The notes below the pieces were generated by a model. It was given only the letters and a program-made list of their open reading frames with translations, did no database searches and had not been told where the DNA came from. Positions 34,585-59,301 of a stretch of DNA of 64,000 nucleotides are shown here, in pieces. This DNA is from Candidatus Bathyarchaeum sp. Lineage in GTDB: Archaea; Thermoproteota; Bathyarchaeia; Bathyarchaeales; Bathyarchaeaceae. Within the stretch, counting starts at the first letter, position 1. The number at the start of each line of letters is the position of its first letter. The DNA lies in assembly GCA_020344315.1 (NCBI GenBank), contig CP070820.1:319116-383115 (forward strand), read 5' to 3'. A program made the translations under genes and the position numbers.

Positions 34585-34600
34585 GTCAAGAAATCTTGAC
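34585..34600. promoter_or_regulatory. Operator-like palindrome GTCAAG-AAAT-CTTGAC (site 1 of 3)
   Basis: Perfect 6-bp arms. Conserved left flank TTTA. Confidence 0.65.
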
Positions 34601-34629
34601 CAGAACCGTAATGGCGCGTCATTCATTTA

Positions 34630-34645
34630 GTCAAGAAACCTTGAC
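34630..34645. promoter_or_regulatory. Operator-like palindrome GTCAAG-AAAC-CTTGAC (site 2 of 3)
   Basis: Perfect 6-bp arms, 45 bp from site 1 (start to start). Confidence 0.65.
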
Positions 34646-34672
34646 TATGACGTGCTCACGCATTTTAAATAG

Positions 34673-34688
34673 GTCAAGAAACCTTGAC
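34673..34688. promoter_or_regulatory. Operator-like palindrome GTCAAG-AAAC-CTTGAC (site 3 of 3)
   Basis: Perfect 6-bp arms, 43 bp from site 2. It abuts TATA-like ATACATATATT / TATAATA, 44 bp before ATG 34732. Confidence 0.65.
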
Positions 34689-34731: not shown

Positions 34732-37700
34732 ATGTTCGGCATGAAAAAATTTGTATCAAAGTTTGTGCTGTCGCTAATTCTAACTTCATTGTTTGTAGCT
34801 CTCTTCAGTTTCACACATCACTTTGAAGTCAGAGCTGAGCTATTTCTTTTAGAAGACAACGAAAGTTACAGTGTTAGTGCTTCGTCTTCGATACAAATCA
34901 TGGTTCCAGACGATTATCCAACTATTCAAGAAGCAATAGTTCATGCAGCTGAAGGCGCTACAATCACTGTCAAAGACGGAACATACTACGAAGCTGTGAC
35001 TGTAAATAAAAAGTTGACCTTAATTGGAGTTGATTATCCAGTAATTGATAGCAACGAATCACGAAGTACAGTGATGATAACTGCTGATGGTGTAACTCTA
35101 CAAGGTTTTAATGTGACCAACTGTGGGTATTCGAGCGAGCCATTTGGCGGCGGTATAGAATTGAGTGGCGTAAGAGACTGTGTTATTGTTGGCAACAACG
35201 CTTACGACAATAAGAGAAATGGAATTTCTCTAACAAACTCAAATTATAACAAGATAGAAAACAACATATGTGCGAATAACTCGGATGGGATTAGACTTTG
35301 GTCAAGGTCACCTCTGACGAGCAGCAACAATTTGATAAAAAACAACATTTGTTTCAAAAATCGGCGTTACGGTATCGAATTTTGGTCTTACATCTATATG
35401 ACGACAACAACGAATGACAACATCATTACCTTGAATGATTGTTCCGCAAATCGTGAGGGTGGCATATACCTCGGCAAATCCGTTAATTGCGTTTTGTCTG
35501 AAAACACTTTATCTTATAACGAAATTGGGGTTTTCCTGGACGGCAGAAATATGACTACAAAGAACATTACCGTAACAAATAATCTAGTCTTGAATAACTC
35601 TCGTGGACTCTATCTCTATGGAACAGGTTTGAAGGAAACTCTCATAGTTGAAAACACTATTGGAAACAATGACCTTGGAATCTATTGCCAGAGCGTGTAC
35701 GGCAACGAATTTTATCACAACGACTTCATCAACAATATAGAGCAAGTTCATTTGAGTAGCTCTGGATCAGAAAACTTGTGGGATAATGGTGTTGAAGGCA
35801 ATTACTGGAGCAATTATGACGGTACAGATATCGATGAAGATGGAATTGGAGATGTCCCATACATAATTGATGAAAACAATCAAGATAACTATCCTTTGAT
35901 GGCACCATGGAACTCAGGAAGCGGAAATGTAACAACGGGTCCCGGCACATGGACTGTAGATGATAGTGGCTCCGCAGACTTTCACACAATACAGGAAGCC
36001 ATTAACGCAGCCGGGAATGGAGATACTGTTCTCGTATTCTCTGGAACCTATTATGAGAATGTTATTGTGAACAAAACATTAACCGTTGAATCGGAGAGTG
36101 GGGCTGAAAACACTATTGTCTGTACTCCAGACCCTGAAACAGGAAAAAGCGTCTTTGAGGTCTGGGCAGGTAATGTTGAAATCACTGGGTTTACAATACG
36201 GGACAGCACCAATAGAACGATTCCCGGAGACCCATTTAATCCCGCCAGTTACGTTGACGCATGCGGCATTTACGTTGGATCAGCTACAGGCACCAAAATT
36301 AGCAGAAACATCGTGAGAAACAATTTTGAGGGGATCGTCTTCGCAAATTGCTCGAACATCATCGTATCTGAAAACCAAATAACGGAAAATATCCATGAAG
36401 GTGCCAGACTTGTCTATTCGTCGTCCGCAACTCTTATAGAAAATAGCATAACCCGCAACCATCATCCAGAAATTTTGGCTGCGACAGGCCTAGTGATTTT
36501 CCATTGCACAAACAGTGAAGTTTTAACAAACCAGATAGATGCAAATGACAATGGTGTAGTGGTTTCGAACTCTCATAGCATTACCGTCTCCATTAATAGC
36601 ATAATCAACAACAGATTTCATGGCTTAAACATCGTTAATGGGAACGGTCAAATAATTTTTGGAAACAACATCAGAAACAACACCTACGGCATCTGTCCCA
36701 GTGGCGGCTCAAACAACCAAATTTCCGGGAATACACTACAGGAGAATGATCACGGCATAGCCTTCTACGGTTCCTCAAATAACCTCATCTATTCTAATGC
36801 CTTCATTAACAATTCAATCCAAGTCGGTAATTTCCATGGACACGAGACTAACCTATTTGATAATGGCTTTAAAGGCAACTACTGGAGCGACTACAACGGC
36901 ACAGACAGTGACGGAGATGGAATCGGAGATGTTCCATACGTTATTGACGAAAACAATCAAGACAATTGTCCACTTATGTATCGAGAGAGTTCTGGTCGCT
37001 CTCTCTCCTACCAACTTATAGTAGATAGCATACCCTCTGGAGTAACATTCACAATTGACAACGTAACGAGTACAACTCCTTGGTCAAAGGTCTATAATGG
37101 GACCACATCAGTTACCTTGGTGATGCCCGAATCTCACTCCATCGAAGGCGAAAACTACATTTGGTGGCGGTGGATCGACGGAGATACAAATCGAATAAGA
37201 ACAGTCACTGTAGACAACAGCACAGCATTAACTGCCATGTTTAAACCAGGAGACACATCTCTGAAAATTTCCATTCTGTCTCCAGAAAACAAGACCTATG
37301 CCACAACTGGTGTTCCTTTAGAAATCGCTGTGAATAGAATATTTTATTCGACATCATACAGCCTAGATGGGCAAGCAAACGTAACAATCATCGGAAACAC
37401 AACATTAACCGGTCTATCTGAAGGACCACACAACATCATAGTTTACATCCAAGATACACCCGAAAACGTCAGCGCCTCCCACATCATCCACTTCACTATT
37501 GACACTACTCCTCCGCGCATAACGGATGTGCACCAACTTCAATTAGAAATTAATGGAACCATTGGAGGAGTCCAAGTTAACGCCACAGTCACTGATGCAA
37601 TAAGCGGGGTTGAATGGGTGGCCTTGAACTACACAGATGGTAATGGAACATGGAATCTCAGTGAAATGACAAACCTAGAAAGCGACACATGGAGCGGCAC

Positions 37701-37905
37701 TATACCCGCTCTTCCACACGGCACAAACGTCACATACATAATTATAGCAAGAGACAAAGCCCAAAACACGATCACAACTGAGGAACTATCTGAATTGCAA
37801 CATCAATATGAAGTTATTCCAGAGTTTTCATCATGGATTATTCTGCCTCTAACCTTGATTGTAGCACTGTTTGCTGTGGACATCGTTAAAAAAACTTTGC
37901 AGTAA
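34732..37905 (+). CDS. Large secreted surface protein: two NosD-like parallel beta-helix modules, Ig-like C-terminal domains, PEF-CTERM anchor signal
   Basis: Signal peptide MKKFVSKFVLSLILTSLFVALFSF. Many PbH1-type repeats (N..I..N...GI.L). Two copies of GNYWS.Y.GTD.D.DGIGDVPY.IDENNQDN.PLM. C-terminus is VIPEFSSW plus a helix plus KK. Confidence 0.85.
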   Translation: MFGMKKFVSKFVLSLILTSLFVALFSFTHHFEVRAELFLLEDNESYSVSASSSIQIMVPDDYPTIQEAIVHAAEGATITVKDGTYYEAVTVNKKLTLIGVDYPVIDSNESRSTVMITADGVTLQGFNVTNCGYSSEPFGGGIELSGVRDCVIVGNNAYDNKRNGISLTNSNYNKIENNICANNSDGIRLWSRSPLTSSNNLIKNNICFKNRRYGIEFWSYIYMTTTTNDNIITLNDCSANREGGIYLGKSVNCVLSENTLSYNEIGVFLDGRNMTTKNITVTNNLVLNNSRGLYLYGTGLKETLIVENTIGNNDLGIYCQSVYGNEFYHNDFINNIEQVHLSSSGSENLWDNGVEGNYWSNYDGTDIDEDGIGDVPYIIDENNQDNYPLMAPWNSGSGNVTTGPGTWTVDDSGSADFHTIQEAINAAGNGDTVLVFSGTYYENVIVNKTLTVESESGAENTIVCTPDPETGKSVFEVWAGNVEITGFTIRDSTNRTIPGDPFNPASYVDACGIYVGSATGTKISRNIVRNNFEGIVFANCSNIIVSENQITENIHEGARLVYSSSATLIENSITRNHHPEILAATGLVIFHCTNSEVLTNQIDANDNGVVVSNSHSITVSINSIINNRFHGLNIVNGNGQIIFGNNIRNNTYGICPSGGSNNQISGNTLQENDHGIAFYGSSNNLIYSNAFINNSIQVGNFHGHETNLFDNGFKGNYWSDYNGTDSDGDGIGDVPYVIDENNQDNCPLMYRESSGRSLSYQLIVDSIPSGVTFTIDNVTSTTPWSKVYNGTTSVTLVMPESHSIEGENYIWWRWIDGDTNRIRTVTVDNSTALTAMFKPGDTSLKISILSPENKTYATTGVPLEIAVNRIFYSTSYSLDGQANVTIIGNTTLTGLSEGPHNIIVYIQDTPENVSASHIIHFTIDTTPPRITDVHQLQLEINGTIGGVQVNATVTDAISGVEWVALNYTDGNGTWNLSEMTNLESDTWSGTIPALPHGTNVTYIIIARDKAQNTITTEELSELQHQYEVIPEFSSWIILPLTLIVALFAVDIVKKTLQ

Positions 37906-53469: not shown

Positions 53470-53551
53470 GCGTTAAGTGAATGAATGGACTTCACGGCAT
53501 GGTATACTAGAAGAAAGAGTGCAGTTTCTTGTATGAGATAGATTGTTGTCT

Positions 53552-53701
53552 TTAGACGCATCCGCCGCAGTTGATGCAGCCGCTCATTATGCCTCTGCAC
53601 CACATTGGTAGTGGTCGTTGTGGCTTCTCGGTTTCTGTTTCCGCCTTCAGCCTCTTTTTAGCCAGGCTTTGTCGGCTGCGAGCCTGTTCTTGCAGTGCCA
53701 T
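53552..53701 (-). CDS. 49-codon ORF absent from the supplied ORF track: basic helical leader plus C-terminal Cys4 core (MALQEQARSRQSLAKKRLKAETETEKPQRPLPMWCRGIMSGCINCGGCV)
   Basis: Translated by hand. ATG at 53701 is preceded by GGTGAAAGCAAA (SD-like GGTGA, 7-nt spacing) and a T/A-rich stretch. It is below the ORF track length cut-off. Confidence 0.35.
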   Translation of the reverse strand: MALQEQARSRQSLAKKRLKAETETEKPQRPLPMWCRGIMSGCINCGGCV

Positions 53702-54056
53702 TTGCTTTCACCGAAATAACTAATGTTAGGGTCTGGATTATTCTTTAAGGTTAAAAAAAAGGATGTTTTGAGGTTTTAGTCACATTAATTGTTACTCAAG
53801 TTTACATATAAACAAGGAGAGATATTGAGGCAGGAACTTAGTTACAGATAATGTTACTTCTATCCCCAACAAATGAAAAATATGTAACAAAAAGAAGAAA
53901 AGGAAAATAACAAAAGGTTGGTGATTTGGGATTTGCACCCACGCAAAACATCTAGATTTAGCGGATTCAGCAGCAAGATGGTTGGTTAAATTATTTCCAG
54001 TTATTATTGTTCCATCGAGTAGTTCTCCCCGACTTCAAGCCAAACAGTTGACCTCA

Positions 54057-54072
54057 GTCAAAGTTTCTTGAC
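54057..54072. promoter_or_regulatory. Operator-like palindrome GTCAAAGTTTCTTGAC (same family as 34585-34688)
   Basis: 15/16 identical to the reverse complement of sites 2/3 (GTCAAGGTTTCTTGAC). It is preceded by a further TTGAC at 54048-54052 and lies 26 nt upstream of ATG 54098. Confidence 0.6.
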
Positions 54073-54097: not shown

Positions 54098-55744
54098 ATG
54101 ATGTATTGTTGGTACACAAAGGTGTGGAAAAAAGGGCATAAAAGTCGGGGTTTCCTTGGAGTTATTCTTACACTTGCAGTTACCTTGATGCTCATTGGAG
54201 TTTTTGTTTGTCAACCCGTTTCTAGCTGCTATGGTCCCCATATTAATACTACCGTCTCAGCGACTCAAATTAACATAAACGAAAACGTCACCGTAACCGG
54301 AGAAGTTTGTCTTGGCATTGACGAAGAAACAAACCTGACCGTAAGAATGGTATTTGTTAGACCAGACTACAGTTGGATAGAGCAATTTCTTCAAGCTGAC
54401 AATGAAACAGGCGAATTCATGGTAACTCAGAAACTTGATATGGTTGGATACTGGAACATATTTCCAGTGCTTGGTCACATAAATGACAGAATGGGTGTAA
54501 CTGTAGTTGATCCATCAGGTGAATCACGCGAACCGACGGTGATTGCCGGGTCACCATTTAAACCAAACCTTCTACTGGTATCTGTAGCCATAGCTATAGT
54601 AAGCATTGGTGGAATAGTAGCTATAACTGGAATACGGAAAAAGACGCGAAAAATCAGTTCTTTGCGGTTGTTCGTCCAAATTCTTTTGGTATTCATAATC
54701 TTCTTTGGCATGTTCGTTGATCACCAAATCCTGCCACAACCAGCAAGTAAAGTTCCTGTACACGAATTATTAGTTGGAACAAATGTTCTTGGAGTGGAAA
54801 TGCCTGATGGTTTTCCTGTTCCATTCTTTGGGTGTTACTATCCCTGTGGCAAAACTGTAACCTGTGCCCTTTGGGAAATTCAAACATACTTTTACCCTTT
54901 CTGGCAAACTGAGCGTGGCTGGGGCGTAGATTACAACTCTTCAGGGCTAGTCAGGTTGGCGGTTGTTTTCGGAGCAGTCATATTGTTGTCGATTCTTCTG
55001 GGCAAATTCTTCTGCGGATGGGTTTGCCCTTTCGGCTTGTATATGGATGCACTTACATACCTCAGAAAATTCGTAAAGATACCACATCGAGATTTGTCAG
55101 AAAACTTCAACAAGAAGTTTCATCAGCTCGGGTACGTGATTTTAGCCCTACTTATAGTATTAAGTGTCATTTTCGGCTCAGAAGCCATAGCAGGCGCACA
55201 ACTGGTTCCTGAAACCGAAGTAGGAGGCTTTGTTTACCAGTACTTTTCTGCGCCTTTTTGCCAAGTCTGTCCGATGAAGCCATTTTGTGTGCTACTACAA
55301 TCAAGCGTGAACTTGATACGTCCCGAATGGATTAGTCAGGTAACAACAGGGCAGTTCTATGAATTGGGTTATTATGTTACTTCAATAAATCTAATCGTGT
55401 TGGGCGTAGTTACCGTCGCAGCATTCTTTTTTAGGCGTGCATGGTGCAGAATCTGCCCTCTAGGCGCCTTAATCGCTTTATTCAATCGCTTTCCACCATT
55501 CAAATGGGTATCATTTCTTCGCTTAGACAAGGTGGAAGAGAAATGCACCAAATGTGGAATCTGCAAGAGAGTTTGTCCAACACAAGTCACAGAAGTGTAT
55601 GACGAGAAAAGCGGAGACGTCACGACCTCCAAATGTATAATGTGTCTACGCTGTGTTGAAATGTGCCCATACGAAGATGCTCTACAATTGAAAGCGGCAG
55701 GAAAAACCATTGCGAGGTCTAGAAACTGGTTAGAAGAAAGGTGA
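54098..55744 (+). CDS. NapH/NosH-like membrane polyferredoxin (COG0348-like) with N-terminal extracellular Ig-like domain
   Basis: Membrane Cys motifs FFCGWVCPFG and AWCRICPLG. C-terminal CTKCGICKRVCP and CIMCLRCVEMCP. Signal-anchor plus beta-rich about 130-aa N-domain. ATG 54098 is preferred because TTG 54068 lies inside the operator. Confidence 0.8.
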   Translation: MMYCWYTKVWKKGHKSRGFLGVILTLAVTLMLIGVFVCQPVSSCYGPHINTTVSATQININENVTVTGEVCLGIDEETNLTVRMVFVRPDYSWIEQFLQADNETGEFMVTQKLDMVGYWNIFPVLGHINDRMGVTVVDPSGESREPTVIAGSPFKPNLLLVSVAIAIVSIGGIVAITGIRKKTRKISSLRLFVQILLVFIIFFGMFVDHQILPQPASKVPVHELLVGTNVLGVEMPDGFPVPFFGCYYPCGKTVTCALWEIQTYFYPFWQTERGWGVDYNSSGLVRLAVVFGAVILLSILLGKFFCGWVCPFGLYMDALTYLRKFVKIPHRDLSENFNKKFHQLGYVILALLIVLSVIFGSEAIAGAQLVPETEVGGFVYQYFSAPFCQVCPMKPFCVLLQSSVNLIRPEWISQVTTGQFYELGYYVTSINLIVLGVVTVAAFFFRRAWCRICPLGALIALFNRFPPFKWVSFLRLDKVEEKCTKCGICKRVCPTQVTEVYDEKSGDVTTSKCIMCLRCVEMCPYEDALQLKAAGKTIARSRNWLEER

Positions 55745-55749
55745 AATGA

Positions 55750-56649
55750 GTGGAATGTCCCGTGAAACAAATAAAAGCGCTTGTTATTCTGTTAACCTTA
55801 ATCAGCTTCTGTTCTGTGAATATTTTGTCAGTTCAAGCATCTGGACTCATTTTTGTCAGGGCTGACGGAAGCCTTGAAGGAACAAATAAGATTCAGCGCA
55901 ACGGAAACGTTTACACTTTTATAGGCGACATCAAAGAGTCTTACGGAATTATTGTAGAAACAAAAAACATTGTGATTGACGGAAAAGGTCATACACTAGA
56001 GGGAACACCCAGAATTCTGCCAATCGGTTCATGGGACTTTGGAATAGAATTAACGAACATTACAAGCGGTCATGTGACAATCAAAGATTTGAAAATTCTA
56101 AACTTCAATATTGGAATCTACGTTGGGACAGCAAATAACACAATAACAGGGAACACAATAAGCGGCGGTAATGTAGGCATCACCATCGCAGAGTCCCCAA
56201 ACATTATTATTGGCAACCACATAGAAAACAATCTAGAAGGCGTCTTTTTAGGTCCTCTCCCACACGATCACGCAAATGTACATAACATATTTTATCACAA
56301 CAGTTTTGTTAACAACACGAGGCACGTTTACGATTGTGAATGCACTAACCCAATCTGGATTCAGCACCTGAACGTTTGGGACAATGGTACAAGCGGCAAT
56401 TATTGGAGTGACTACGACGGTATTGATGTGGATAAAGATGGAATTGGTGATACTCCCTACTCAGTTACTGAGGACGATGTTGATACGTGCCCTCTTATGG
56501 AGCCTCTAGCATATCCTTTAGGCGGAAAAGACGGCTTCCTAGGCACAAACATACCCTTAGAAGTTGGGCTTGCTATTATAGCAGGGGCAATTATTGCAAT
56601 ATCAACAACAGCTTATGTAGTTTTCAAGCGCAAAAAATCTAAGGCCTAA
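55750..56649 (+). CDS. NosD-like parallel beta-helix protein with signal peptide and C-terminal TM anchor
   Basis: Signal-like KQIKALVILLTLISFCSVNILSVQA, PbH1 repeats, GNYWSDYDGIDVDKDGIGDTPY....DVDTCPLM, and a C-terminal hydrophobic helix plus KRKKSK. Confidence 0.8.
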   Translation: MECPVKQIKALVILLTLISFCSVNILSVQASGLIFVRADGSLEGTNKIQRNGNVYTFIGDIKESYGIIVETKNIVIDGKGHTLEGTPRILPIGSWDFGIELTNITSGHVTIKDLKILNFNIGIYVGTANNTITGNTISGGNVGITIAESPNIIIGNHIENNLEGVFLGPLPHDHANVHNIFYHNSFVNNTRHVYDCECTNPIWIQHLNVWDNGTSGNYWSDYDGIDVDKDGIGDTPYSVTEDDVDTCPLMEPLAYPLGGKDGFLGTNIPLEVGLAIIAGAIIAISTTAYVVFKRKKSKA

Positions 56650-56668
56650 CAAAAAAGAAACGCTCTCA

Positions 56669-57358
56669 TCATAACTGAAGTAGCTCTATTACTGCAAATG
56701 ACAAAACGGAAATCCCTAGCAAAACAAGGATTATTCCACCCAGTATTGATATCCATTTTCTGAAGTCCGGAGCTTTTTCAAGAAGCCAGCCAACTACGCC
56801 TCCAAGAAACAGCAATGGAGATAATGCCGTTCCCAAACCAAAAAGAACCGCTAAAAGAGTACAATTTGCTTGAGAGAATGTAACGGCGTATAAGAGAAGA
56901 GCAATAAGAGGAGGACATAATACAAAACCTCTAGTGAAACCCATAGAAAATGCTCGAACATCAAATCTTTGCTTCACACTCTTTAAGATCCCTTGAGGTT
57001 CAAGGTCCTTTACCATGCAAGTGTCGCCGGAAGTTTTTTTGAAGAATATGCTTATGCCGATAAAGATAACGACAAAACCGAAGATTATAGAAGAAAATTG
57101 CTGGTAGGACTCTAAGAATGTGCCGCTCACAAAGAATTTGAACAAACCGGCTAAGCTCCCTATCACCGCATAGGCTGCTATGCGACCTGAATTATAGATT
57201 GCGGTGACCGTTACTCCTCTACGGAATCCTGCTTTGATTCCTGCAATGTAACTTGCCACATAAGGGAGGCATACTGACGTGCAGAATGTGAGCCCATACA
57301 ATAGCCCTAAAGCAAGGGATGCAAGATAAGGGTTCGAAATCTGCTCTAGCACACTCAT
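56669..57358 (-). CDS. DsbD_2 / CcdA-like thiol-disulfide transfer membrane protein
   Basis: 229 aa, 6 TM. Cys in TM1 (GLTFCTSVCLPY) and TM4 (GFVLCPPL), as in CcdA/DsbD-family electron-transfer cores. Confidence 0.6.
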   Translation of the reverse strand: MSVLEQISNPYLASLALGLLYGLTFCTSVCLPYVASYIAGIKAGFRRGVTVTAIYNSGRIAAYAVIGSLAGLFKFFVSGTFLESYQQFSSIIFGFVVIFIGISIFFKKTSGDTCMVKDLEPQGILKSVKQRFDVRAFSMGFTRGFVLCPPLIALLLYAVTFSQANCTLLAVLFGLGTALSPLLFLGGVVGWLLEKAPDFRKWISILGGIILVLLGISVLSFAVIELLQL

Positions 57359-57393
57359 CTTTAAAGACCTACACGATTTTTCTGATGTTTTGC

Positions 57394-58125
57394 CTATACT
57401 GGCTCTTCAAACTCCTCTTGAGGTATCTGCGAAAAAAGCTTTCCATCCCTCATAAAAAGCAAACGATTTGTGTATCCCCTGACATATCCCGCATGGGTTA
57501 CAGCTACAACCGTCTGACCCTGCTCCTTGTTGGCCTCATGGCATATCCTAAGAATCTCTCTTCCTGTTTTGGTGTCTAGGTTCCCGGTGGGCTCATCTAA
57601 AAGAAGAATCCTAGGCTTGTTAGCAAATGCCCGAACAATGGCTACCCTTTGTTGTTCCCCAGCACTCAATTCCACAGGCAAGTGATGAGCCCGTTGCCCC
57701 AGTCCGACCGATTCAAGAAGTTCTATTGATCGTTCAAAGCGTTCATTCTTTGACATGTCAGTTGGAGCTAAAGCTACTTCCACATTCTCAAGGGCGGAAA
57801 AAGTGGGTATTAAATTGAATGCTTGAAAGACAAAACCAACCTTCTCGCGTCTAACCCTAACCAACTCACCTTCACTCAGCTTCGAAAGCTCCAATCCATC
57901 CAGAATTACCTTCCCCCCACTTGGCTTGTCAAGCCCCCCTATCAGATTGAGGAGGGTTGTTTTGCCGCTTCCAGAGGGACCCAGAATAGTTAGGAATTGT
58001 CCTTCCGGAACCTCCAAACAGACTTCATCCACGGCTTTTACTTCACCAGCGCTCCCTTTACGATAGGTTTTTGACAGGTTTGAAACCTCGATTATGTTTC
58101 TTGTTGGCATCCCTAATTTCTCCAT
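57394..58125 (-). CDS. ABC transporter ATP-binding protein, MacB/LolD type
   Basis: Walker [18 protein letters not shown]...ALENV, signature [13 protein letters not shown], Walker B LLLDEPT. Confidence 0.9.
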
Positions 58126-59301
58126 CTATATTGTTCTAAGAGCGTCGACAGGTACCAGTCTAGCTGCCCTCCAAGAAGAGAATAATCCTGCAACGATCCC
58201 GCTTACCATTGATATTCCGAACCCTATGCTGAGGATTATGGGGTCTATTGTTATGAAATTCAGGGCTCCGCCAATTTCTCCTCCTATGGTGGAAAGGACA
58301 TACGAAGCAAAAATGTAACCTAAGGCGCAGCCTAGCAGTCCACCTATAATTCCCTGTATTACGGACTCGATGGCAATCTGGTTTACGACATTAGAGTTGC
58401 TCCAGCCTATTGCCTTCAAGATTCCTATCTCTTTAGTGCGCTCTGCCACAGTACTCAGTTGAGATTTAATTGTGAAGAGAATGGTGATAACCGCTAAAGC
58501 AATTGAAATGCTCCAAGCAGTATCCTCATTTATTTGGATAACCCCAAATGCTGTTTCAGCTAAATCCGAACCAGTTAATGTGCTTGAATTAGGCCACTCA
58601 TCTTCTAATGCTGTCGCAGTTTTTTCTACCTTACCTGGGCTACTTGTTCGGATGAGACCCATATTTACTAGCCCAACTGGTTTTTCAGGTAAGACTTCTT
58701 GGACGATTGGCAGGTTCACGTATATGTGGGATTTCATGATGTTTGTTGCACTAACTTCAACTATGCCCACCACTTCAAAGTCTGCTGCGTAAGTTACTGT
58801 TGAACCTAAAGTGAGATTATTTAGTTGAGCATATTCGTTGTCAACAAGAGCCACATACCCATCGTGGGCTGTAAGATATCTGCCCTCAATTATGGAGCTC
58901 GGCAATACGGCGTTTGTTTCTGTTTCGGATGGGTCTATACCCGTAAAAACCATAGCGCGTAGCCTGTGCATCAGTATCGGTACCGCACATTCAACATCGG
59001 GGACATCCTCTATTTCAGTTAGGAGGGTTTGGTTGAATGGATACGAAAAGAGGTGGTTTACAATATAGCAGCCTGTGCCTGCTGGTTTGACTGGTGCAGT
59101 GTAGAATAAGATTATGTCTGTTCCTATGCTGTTAAGGGGGACTTTGGTACATGTTTCCCAGCCTCTAGCAGCCATAACTAGTGTGATTAGGGTACTGATG
59201 GCGATGATAAAGCCTGCAATATTTACTGCGGTTCGATATTTCCGTCTTCGTATTTCCTTTACAGCATACGTGAATGGTATCAAAAAGTCAACCTCACCCA
59301 A
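58126..59301 (-). CDS. ABC transporter permease, FtsX/MacB type with large extracytoplasmic domain
   Basis: N-terminal TM, about 230-aa external domain, then a 3-TM FtsX module (ERTKEIGILKAIGWS). It abuts the ATPase gene. Confidence 0.85.
   Translation of the reverse strand: MGEVDFLIPFTYAVKEIRRRKYRTAVNIAGFIIAISTLITLVMAARGWETCTKVPLNSIGTDIILFYTAPVKPAGTGCYIVNHLFSYPFNQTLLTEIEDVPDVECAVPILMHRLRAMVFTGIDPSETETNAVLPSSIIEGRYLTAHDGYVALVDNEYAQLNNLTLGSTVTYAADFEVVGIVEVSATNIMKSHIYVNLPIVQEVLPEKPVGLVNMGLIRTSSPGKVEKTATALEDEWPNSSTLTGSDLAETAFGVIQINEDTAWSISIALAVITILFTIKSQLSTVAERTKEIGILKAIGWSNSNVVNQIAIESVIQGIIGGLLGCALGYIFASYVLSTIGGEIGGALNFITIDPIILSIGFGISMVSGIVAGLFSSWRAARLVPVDALRTI

Follow-up and report, generated by a model that had tools for sequence, protein, structure and literature searches.

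We analysed a stretch of 64,000 nucleotides from Candidatus Bathyarchaeum sp. (Archaea; Thermoproteota; Bathyarchaeia; GenBank assembly GCA_020344315.1, contig CP070820.1, positions 319,116 to 383,115 of the forward strand), hereafter called the window; the coordinates below are positions in it. Between 54,098 and 59,301 lie two convergent units with five open reading frames (ORFs) in all, and 19 bp separate their stop codons. The plus-strand unit encodes a NapH-type membrane iron-sulfur (Fe-S) protein and a small beta-helix surface protein resembling NosD, and the minus-strand unit encodes a DsbD_2-family protein and an ATP-binding cassette (ABC) transporter. An earlier note, made from the sequence alone, had described these two operons and had read the five genes as one self-contained extracytoplasmic redox or maturation module. 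We found that the conserved unit is the plus-strand gene pair, which occurs across one order of Bathyarchaeia, and that the locus is a composite of this two-gene core and accessory neighbours in the genus Bathyarchaeum. The convergent arrangement of the five ORFs was confirmed, and the protein families that had been named were all recovered with Pfam and NCBIfam hidden Markov models; the curated NCBIfam equivalog cut-off was reached by none of the five proteins. The ORFs are simple longest-ORF calls, and the genome (1.56 Mb) is 88% complete.

The first gene of the plus-strand unit (54,098 to 55,744, plus strand; the longest ORF begins at 54,068) encodes a protein of 548 amino acid residues, which was assigned by Pfam, NCBIfam, alignment, AlphaFold2 (AF2) modelling, and hydropathy and charge. 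It matched Pfam Fer4_5 (58.7 bits) and, toward its C-terminus, a dicluster ferredoxin (Fer4_10, Fer4, and Fer4_7). The best NCBIfam match was NapH, far under the cut-off (NF007013, 91.7 bits vs. 234; TIGR02163, 79.3 bits vs. 213.05), and the NosR model NF046105 gave 45 bits for a cut-off of 1000. Only generic dicluster ferredoxins were matched in a profile search of the PDB. The protein has six hydrophobic segments, and both of its termini lie inside the cell according to hydropathy, charge count, and the AF2 model; its loops alternate between those rich in Lys and Arg, on the inside, and those poor in them, on the outside. The AF2 model was built on an alignment of 79 sequences and had a mean predicted local distance difference test (pLDDT) value of 73.9. 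A fold search with this model gave immunoglobulin (Ig)-like matches only, leaving the membrane core without a match among solved structures.

The extra extracellular Ig-like domain that the earlier note had seen in this protein is real. It is an outward-facing beta-sandwich (residues 49 to 137; 54,242 to 54,508, plus strand) that lies between the signal or TM0 segment and the first transmembrane (TM) helix, TM1, and its strands were modelled with a pLDDT of about 90. The fold matches were macroglobulin MG, CARDB, filamin, and S-layer Ig-like domains, with a TM-score to the target of at most 0.71, and a sequence relation to any Pfam family was not found. In and around the domain, C44, P47, G68, F86, P89, W119, N120, D130, and R131 are conserved in at least 90% of the sequences. 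A His-based metal site in the domain (CYGPH...GH) was considered and dropped, as both His residues are conserved in less than 90%. As for the origin of the domain, the N-terminal 200 residues gave nothing below an E-value of about 7 in BLASTP against the anchored proteins of about 230 residues whose genes lie upstream of NapH-like paralogues, and BLASTP of the full-length protein against all proteins of this genome did not match the small surface proteins of the regulon described below. Because both searches were empty, descent of the fused domain from an upstream small-protein gene cannot be claimed.

Two outward loops of the protein carry conserved cysteines. Loop 1 (residues 208 to 282; 54,719 to 54,943, plus strand) has only three Lys or Arg among 75 residues and contains C246, C250, and C256, and loop 2 (residues 366 to 426; 55,193 to 55,375, plus strand) has two among 61 and contains C388, C391, and C397 in the motif FCQVCPMKPFC. 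Across the 79 sequences, four of these six cysteines (C246, C256, C388, and C391) never vary, whereas C250 and C397 are each kept in at least 90%. On the cytoplasmic side, the motifs C306-x3-C310-P and C450-x2-C453-P (55,013 to 55,459, plus strand) are invariant and are carried by loops rich in Lys and Arg. They are followed by the C-terminal cytoplasmic ferredoxin domain with two [4Fe-4S] sites (55,517 to 55,717, plus strand), in which the eight cysteines (C483, C486, C489, C493, C513, C516, C519, and C523) are invariant and form two CxxCxxCxxxCP motifs on the inward side. We also considered an outward Fe-S cluster on the six outward cysteines, which is unlikely, as a twin-arginine signal ahead of a TM segment is lacking and the charge bias puts the ferredoxin domain in the cytoplasm. 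The two short paralogues in this genome that are NapH-like lack both the Ig domain and the outward Cys loops; congeners have a paralogue of about 392 residues in which the loops occur.

The second gene (55,750 to 56,649, plus strand) encodes a small right-handed beta-helix protein of 299 residues, which was identified by Pfam, NCBIfam, AF2, and fold matches. It passed the threshold of the Pfam NosD family (PF05048; 47.7 bits, threshold 23.6), and NosD also ranked first in NCBIfam (TIGR04247, 68.2 bits vs. a cut-off of 300). In the AF2 model (pLDDT 88.8), a signal peptide is followed by a short right-handed beta-helix, and the C-terminus consists of a TM helix (residues 270 to 298; 56,557 to 56,643) with a basic tail; with this signal peptide and this anchor, the protein is the membrane-anchored NosD-like beta-helix protein that had been predicted. 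The fold matches were generic, namely GH87, AlgG, tailspikes, polygalacturonases, and lyases, with NosD at ranks 7 and 14, and no match was found at an E-value of 0.001 or less. The profile of the protein family did match NosD of Pseudomonas stutzeri (7o0y, E-value 1.1e-9), over the C-terminal turns and the GNYWSDY...DGIGD..Y region.

The beta-helix protein carries a CxC motif (C196-E-C198; 56,335 to 56,343, plus strand), which is invariant in 55 of the 55 members of its family that are partnered with a NapH-like gene and lies in an insertion opposite which true NosD has a gap in the alignment. This genome encodes at least 10 paralogous beta-helix surface proteins; among the 11 NYWSDY-type sites in its beta-helix proteins, only one, that of this gene, is preceded by CxC. 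A single internal Met, in the C-terminal PLMEP, is present in the mature protein, and the family consensus shows no His or Met at the helix turns. As there is only one internal Met, the protein cannot hold a His-Met-Met site. According to the available part of PMC13452462, which cites the NosDFY structure, a transient copper site of His-Met-Met defines canonical NosD.

To follow the pair beyond this genome, 185,579 species genomes were scanned, which gave 318 relatives, and the best 80 loci (57 to 81% identity) were analysed; the related genomes counted here are not independent. Seventy-eight of the 80 loci are labelled Bathyarchaeia, Bathyarchaeota, Bathyarchaeum, Bathyarchaeales, MCG-6, Thermoproteota, or 'uncultured archaeon'. 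The ORF calls put a NosD-like gene immediately beside the long NapH-like gene, in the same orientation, in 68 of the 80 loci (downstream in 62 and upstream in six), and tblastn added eight loci in which the neighbour was frameshifted, cut by the contig end, or masked in ORF picking, so that the two genes are adjacent in 76 of 80. In the 62 downstream cases the gap between them has a median of 0 bp (range, -44 to 215 bp). This adjacency bears out the view that the NapH-like and NosD-like genes are a functional pair. Among 300 evenly sampled Thermoproteota genomes, nine besides the source had the long form, all in two families of one order (f1, one genome; f9, eight genomes). The gene pair was not described in the literature that we searched, including genome papers on Bathyarchaeia without their supplements.

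The other two loci have a pair of the typical bathyarchaeal kind, with 57 to 64% identity in the NapH-like protein, in a metagenome-assembled genome (MAG) labelled 'Methanocella sp.' (L130, a 177-kb contig) and in a record labelled 'Acidoferrum' (L107, a 2.3-kb contig). Such occurrences under other phyla suggest mis-binning or gene transfer.

Other genes recur around the pair in parts of its range. A gene of the NADPH-dependent FMN reductase family (FMN_red) lies within three genes downstream in 32 of the 80 loci, ammonium-transporter (Amt) genes occur in 28, and Prismane/Hcp-like genes in 24; all of these neighbours fall within one subclade of 57 to 63% identity. There we repeatedly saw the order Amt, Amt, NapH-like, NosD-like, FMN_red, with the Prismane/hybrid-cluster gene on the other strand (L071, L095, L099, L105, and about 25 others). 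GDSL lipase matches were found in 11 of the 80 loci and acyltransferase matches in eight. The Amt and Hcp queries had no BLAST match in this genome, and a nitrogen-cycle reading of the Amt and Hcp-like neighbours was not adopted, since they are confined to one subclade and are unmatched here.

The minus-strand unit has three genes. The last gene of that operon (56,669 to 57,358, minus strand) encodes a six-TM protein of 229 residues that Pfam placed in DsbD_2 (81.9 bits vs. a threshold of 24.9; DsbD_TM, 43.5 bits), and it is the only copy in the genome. All 19 sequences in its alignment keep C26, C30, C114, and C148-P-P, with C26-x3-C30 in TM1 and C148-P-P in TM4. The nearest Atlas clusters are named TauE/SafE, CcdA-like, and UreH-like, and ArsG-like is also among the family names; a profile search of the PDB gave no relative at an E-value of 1 or less. 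We saw no thioredoxin-like partner in the block, to which the search for such a gene was confined. A CcdA/DsbD_2-type thiol-disulfide relay had been proposed for this protein; the family stands, and the relay function is one reading among those that the TauE/SafE-like and UreH-like labels suggest. The other two genes encode an ABC ATPase of the LolD/MacB/FtsE type (243 residues; 57,394 to 58,125, minus strand; Pfam ABC_tran, 113.5 bits) and an FtsX/MacB-type permease with an outward MacB_PCD domain (391 residues; 58,126 to 59,301, minus strand; FtsX, 61.1 bits; MacB_PCD, 42.8 bits). The ATPase gave 214 bits with the LolD model (cut-off, 307.75), and the LolD, MacB, LolC/E, and FtsX equivalog models all stayed below their cut-offs. 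An FtsX permease with MacB_PCD and a cognate ATPase is the architecture of a type VII ABC transporter, and Pfam thus agrees with the description of a MacB-type exporter whose FtsX family is unlike that of NosFY.

Within the genus the genes stay together as a block. Twelve congener loci carry a close orthologue (72 to 82% identity); 11 of them hold the NapH-like, NosD-like, ABC, and FtsX genes together, and the twelfth ends at a contig edge. The block was found in at least six different upstream contexts among these congeners. An FtsX orthologue (74 to 87% identity) is present in 13 of 13 congeners with a close long NapH-like gene and in none of 11 without one. In one congener (L024:2036-3203) the FtsX orthologue is split over two frames near residue 108, probably by a frameshift or an assembly error. 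DsbD_2 is present in six of the 11 evaluable congener blocks and missing from five. Across all 80 loci the linkage is uncommon: MacB-type FtsX/ABC genes occur in 10 of them, and DsbD_2 in 13, in six of which it stands third in the same operon. Apart from Bathyarchaeum, only two MAGs have the ABC transporter linked to the pair, and no FtsX relative (E-value of 1e-20 or less) was found anywhere in the five sister-family genomes checked, all of which keep the pair. The co-conservation of the two operons in related genomes, which the earlier note had set as a test, was seen inside the genus (11 of 12 loci; FtsX in 13 of 13 vs. 0 of 11). The claim that the five genes are one self-contained module does not hold, as the ABC transporter is absent from 70 of the 80 loci and from all five sister-family genomes, and DsbD_2 is absent from 67 loci and from five of 11 congener blocks. 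The ABC transporter is a lineage-specific companion, gained and lost with the pair, and stands outside the ancestral unit; as related genomes are not independent, this pattern may come from a small number of evolutionary events.

The searches also turned up two further groups of NapH-like genes. In L037 to L040 and L140 (e.g., L038:2492-7423) there is a conserved operon of DsbD_2, a NapH-like protein of 392 residues, HGD-D (a 2-hydroxyglutaryl-CoA dehydratase D-like protein), and two BcrAD_BadFG ATPases, which resembles an ATP-driven reductase of low potential that is coupled to a polyferredoxin in the membrane. The 392-residue protein belongs to the same outward-Cys subfamily and has no Ig domain. 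This operon was not found in the source genome by the searches that were run (a single DsbD_2, and no paralogue of the 392-residue type). The second group (L141 and L143 to L148; 402 to 416 residues) is mostly preceded on the same strand by a gene for a protein of 222 to 238 residues; the three such proteins examined are without a Pfam match and consist of a signal peptide, an outward part rich in beta-structure, and a TM anchor at the C-terminus. This paralogue pair is flanked in L145 by two PQQ_2 propeller surface proteins of about 850 residues, and in L036 a CARDB protein of 755 residues precedes the paralogue.

A 16-bp palindromic operator, GTCAAAGTTTCTTGAC, lies at 54,057 to 54,072 (no strand assigned), 26 to 41 bp upstream of ATG 54,098, and has one mismatch to GTCAAG-N4-CTTGAC. 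The longest ORF of the NapH-like gene would begin at TTG 54,068, which falls inside the operator; for this reason ATG 54,098, the start given in the earlier note, is probably the true start codon, and the orthologues align from about residue 10 on. The earlier note had reported that the operator is shared with the gene of a 1057-residue protein in the window, and this is so: together with three copies at 34,585 to 34,688, it makes four matches in the window, where 0.25 are expected. Across the genome, GTCAAG-N4-CTTGAC with at most one mismatch was found at 39 sites, vs. four for a reversed control. The regulon palindrome, GTCAAGAAACCTTGAC, marks about 19 promoters of genes or operons, usually in two or three tandem copies spaced about 35 to 45 bp apart. 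The operator was absent from the minus-strand operon, even with up to two mismatches allowed. In the region from -400 to +120 of the NapH-like start, it was present in eight of the nine loci of more than 70% identity and in 26 of 80 overall, with about 0.02 chance sites per locus as estimated from the information content of the motif. The operon of the NapH-like and beta-helix genes is a genuine member of this regulon.

Almost all targets of the operator are secreted surface proteins anchored at the C-terminus, many of which end in IPEFPSW and a TM helix (PEF-type). They include nine beta-helix ('NosD'/Beta_helix) proteins, one Kelch protein, and one PQQ-type propeller protein; a further member is an HTH_20/ArsR-type protein of 464 residues with sites at its own start. 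Gene pairs of a small anchored protein and a beta-helix protein recur in the regulon. The 1057-residue protein (34,732 to 37,905) has four NosD-domain and three Beta_helix stretches, has three perfect or near-perfect operator copies upstream, and is the largest regulon member in the window. It had been put forward as a candidate substrate of the module. The operator marks about 19 surface-protein promoters, and not the minus-strand operon, and therefore it singles out no particular substrate, this protein included.

On the upstream side of the plus-strand operon, 53,470 to 54,056 is an unusually long non-coding region of about 600 bp, in which no ORF of at least 70 residues was called; in seven congeners, cyclophilin-like and thermosome genes occupy that side instead. 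The flanks of the locus consist of archaeal housekeeping genes (aminotransferase, beta-CASP, archaeosine TGT, L38e, and RNase HII).

The set is not a nitrous-oxide (nos) system. NosL and both NosZ models had no match in the genome, so the absence of these two proteins, which had been noted for the locus, extends genome-wide by profile models. NapA and NapG above cut-off did not turn up in the genome, nor did ApbE and FMN_bind, and an FMN_bind match is likewise missing from the NapH-like protein. In the available part of PMC13685413, NosDFY is described as relaying Cu(I) from NosL to NosZ, and NosR and NosGH as bringing electrons to NosZ by Fe-S/flavin or quinol-linked routes; no such partner is present here. 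The beta-helix protein shares with NosD (7o0y/7osf) the right-handed beta-helix and the C-terminal GNYWSDY...DGxGD..Y region; unlike NosD, it is about 130 residues shorter, has the CxC insertion, lacks His-Met-Met, and has its own TM anchor instead of docking on NosY, and NosF, NosY, NosL, and NosZ are all missing. The analogy with nos that had been drawn for this locus thus fails, as the NosD-like protein is one of at least 10 paralogues, scores 68 bits vs. a cut-off of 300, offers no His-Met-Met site, and lacks a partner of the NosFY type.

Both Cx(2-3)CP motifs and both [4Fe-4S] motifs of the NapH-like protein align with those of Escherichia coli NapH, which lacks about 190 N-terminal residues, the Ig domain, and the outward Cys loops. 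The NapH-like protein shares with NosR (P. stutzeri) and PceC/RdhC an outward N-terminal domain, a NapH-type TM core with Cx3CP, a cytoplasmic dicluster ferredoxin, and a gene position beside an extracytoplasmic protein that is presumably served. It differs from them in that the outward domain is Ig-like and not FMN-binding, six extra outward cysteines are present, and no ApbE is found in the genome; moreover, the partner is a CxC beta-helix protein and not NosZ or a dehalogenase. According to the available excerpts of Meheust et al. (2021; PMC8238504), most bacterial members of the 'NapH-like systems' have an outward FMN-binding domain, and these modular systems are suggested to conduct electrons through the membrane, in either direction, between the cell and outward oxidoreductases next to them; that survey covered only bacteria, whereas the host here is an archaeon. 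For DsbD systems, the same excerpts mention a secreted protein whose conserved CXC motif probably undergoes redox cycling. The DsbD_2 protein keeps the TM1 and TM4 cysteines of CcdA/DsbD (19 of 19), but it is optional in the cluster and no thioredoxin-like partner was seen in the block. The ABC genes resemble type VII transporters (MacB/LolCDE/FtsEX) in having an FtsX permease with MacB_PCD and a LolD-like ATPase.

Because an Ig domain and six cysteines take the place of the flavin domain, and because the neighbour is a CxC beta-helix protein, we read the pair as a flavin-free variant of the NosR/PceC-type transmembrane electron-transfer module, and on the present analysis we regard the chances of this reading as about even. 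The pair probably passes electrons to the cell surface. The extracytoplasmic redox role that had been suggested for the locus is plausible for the pair, given the gene anatomy, the pairing, the outward cysteines, and the CxC motif. The cytoplasmic donor would be a ferredoxin or a flavoprotein of the FMN-reductase type, such as is encoded just downstream of the pair in many lineages; this genome encodes FMN_red homologues elsewhere (34% identity). From the donor, electrons would enter the [4Fe-4S] ferredoxin domain. Beyond this domain we infer the path and its direction, the contact between the two proteins, and the substrate: electrons may pass through the membrane core to the outward cysteines and from there to the CxC site of the beta-helix partner, which would reduce an extracellular substrate or hold a metal. 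DsbD_2 may add a second, optional supply of reductant. Within Bathyarchaeum, the operator of the surface-protein regulon stands in front of the operon, which has there gained the DsbD_2 and MacB-type ABC genes as accessory neighbours; these are inherited or lost together with it as a block.

Several points speak against an electron-transfer role of the pair. To our knowledge, the route by which electrons cross the membrane is not established for NapH or NosR either. Confidence in the model is lowest in the outward loops, with pLDDT below 50 at residues 236 to 258 and 417 to 424, and the cysteines of these loops could simply form structural disulfides. Four of the 80 loci (L083, L087, L091, and L119) have a long NapH-like gene without the partner, L083 and L087 being second copies in genomes with a complete pair elsewhere. 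Inheritance of gene order, and not function, may explain the FMN_red, Amt, and Hcp-like neighbours, and an adhesin or a glycan-binding protein would be just as compatible with the beta-helix fold and with membership in the regulon. A prediction of the complex of the two proteins (score 0.00, mark 0.32) counts neither way.

Three other explanations have to be weighed with this one. The five genes might together be one nos-like maturation machine, in which the ABC transporter energises the beta-helix protein, the NapH-like and DsbD_2 proteins give reductant, and the client is a surface protein. The integrity of the block in congeners argues for such a machine: it is contiguous in 11 of 12 loci, with the twelfth cut by the contig end, and holds together while the flanking genes vary, and FtsX follows the pair in 13 of 13 congeners and occurs in none of the 11 without it. 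No FtsX relative was found anywhere in the five sister-family genomes at the threshold used (1e-20), and an FtsX-type transporter was therefore seen beside the pair wherever the flanking contig sufficed. The profile match of the beta-helix family to NosD (1.1e-9) agrees with it as well. The perfect FtsX co-occurrence could stem from a single gain or loss, the related genomes not being independent. Moreover, the pair persists without the ABC transporter (70 of 80 loci) and without DsbD_2 (67 of 80, and five of 11 congener blocks), and the two units are convergent, with the operator on the plus-strand unit only. NosZ and NosL are absent, the TIGR04247 score is 68 bits vs. 300, the single internal Met leaves no His-Met-Met site, and the permease is of the FtsX type and not of the NosY type. 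We therefore consider a five-gene machine unlikely.

It is similarly improbable, in our view, that the pair serves adhesion or surface architecture, with the beta-helix protein as a glycan-binding or adhesive protein docked by the Ig-like domain and no electrons leaving the cell. The regulon does consist of PEF-anchored surface proteins, many of them beta-helix proteins; the genome has at least 10 beta-helix paralogues, pairs of small anchored and beta-helix genes recur in the regulon, and the fold matches are glycoside hydrolases, lyases, and tailspikes. The available part of PMC13452462 also proposes that NosD-like proteins without His-Met-Met and the NosY-binding parts are related to adhesion. 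This explanation, however, leaves unaccounted for the constant partnership with an Fe-S membrane protein whose cytoplasmic NapH and ferredoxin cysteines are invariant, the invariance of CxC in this subfamily only, and the cytoplasmic FMN reductase gene that follows the pair in 32 of the 80 loci. A role in metal handling likewise seems doubtful to us. CcoG is a NapH-family protein with an Ig-like domain and a cupric reductase, and the NapH-like protein could be a CcoG-like reductase of Cu2+ or Fe3+, with CxC and the outward cysteines binding metal and the DsbD_2 (UreH-like) protein and the MacB-type pump moving the metal or a metallophore. The Ig-like domain of the CcoG/FixG cupric reductase is the C-terminal FixG_C domain; here it lies at the N-terminus and has no sequence relation to a Pfam family, and no FixG_C match was found in the protein. 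The many conserved outward cysteines and the UreH-like names of the Atlas clusters near DsbD_2 are consistent with metal handling, and true NosD is a Cu(I) relay according to the available part of PMC13685413. Neither FixG_C nor HMA was matched, however, the block contains no copper ATPase or chaperone, the His-Met-Met motif is lacking, and DsbD_2 and the pump are missing from most loci.

The electron-transfer reading of the pair may bear on the physiology of a cultured relative. In the available part of PMC10477458, which describes the single cultured genus, growth of Bathyarchaeum tardum was stimulated by dimethyl sulfoxide (DMSO), with formation of dimethyl sulfide, and by nitrate, and neither Dms/Dor-type or nitrate reductase genes nor obvious electron-transport components were found. 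The genome of this species carries the full block without DsbD_2 (L076/L029). The pair might be an unrecognised electron exit, independent of cytochromes, quinones, and flavins, and the missing machinery behind this stimulation, although we regard this as a long shot. If it were true, a thiol-based reductase of sulfoxides or small oxidants on a beta-helix scaffold would be a new type of enzyme. As the block is present in B. tardum, the electron-exit hypothesis is testable in an existing culture, and its link to the effect of DMSO and nitrate is hypothetical.

For the annotation of archaeal MAGs, our finding suggests caution, as the labels 'NosD' and 'NapH' are not evidence of nitrogen-oxide metabolism. 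Bathyarchaeia are among the most abundant microbes in sediments, and the pair is a concrete candidate for linking cytoplasmic reductant to the cell exterior in these organisms; the design of the NapH-like systems known from NosR and PceC would thereby be extended to Archaea, in a flavin-free form.

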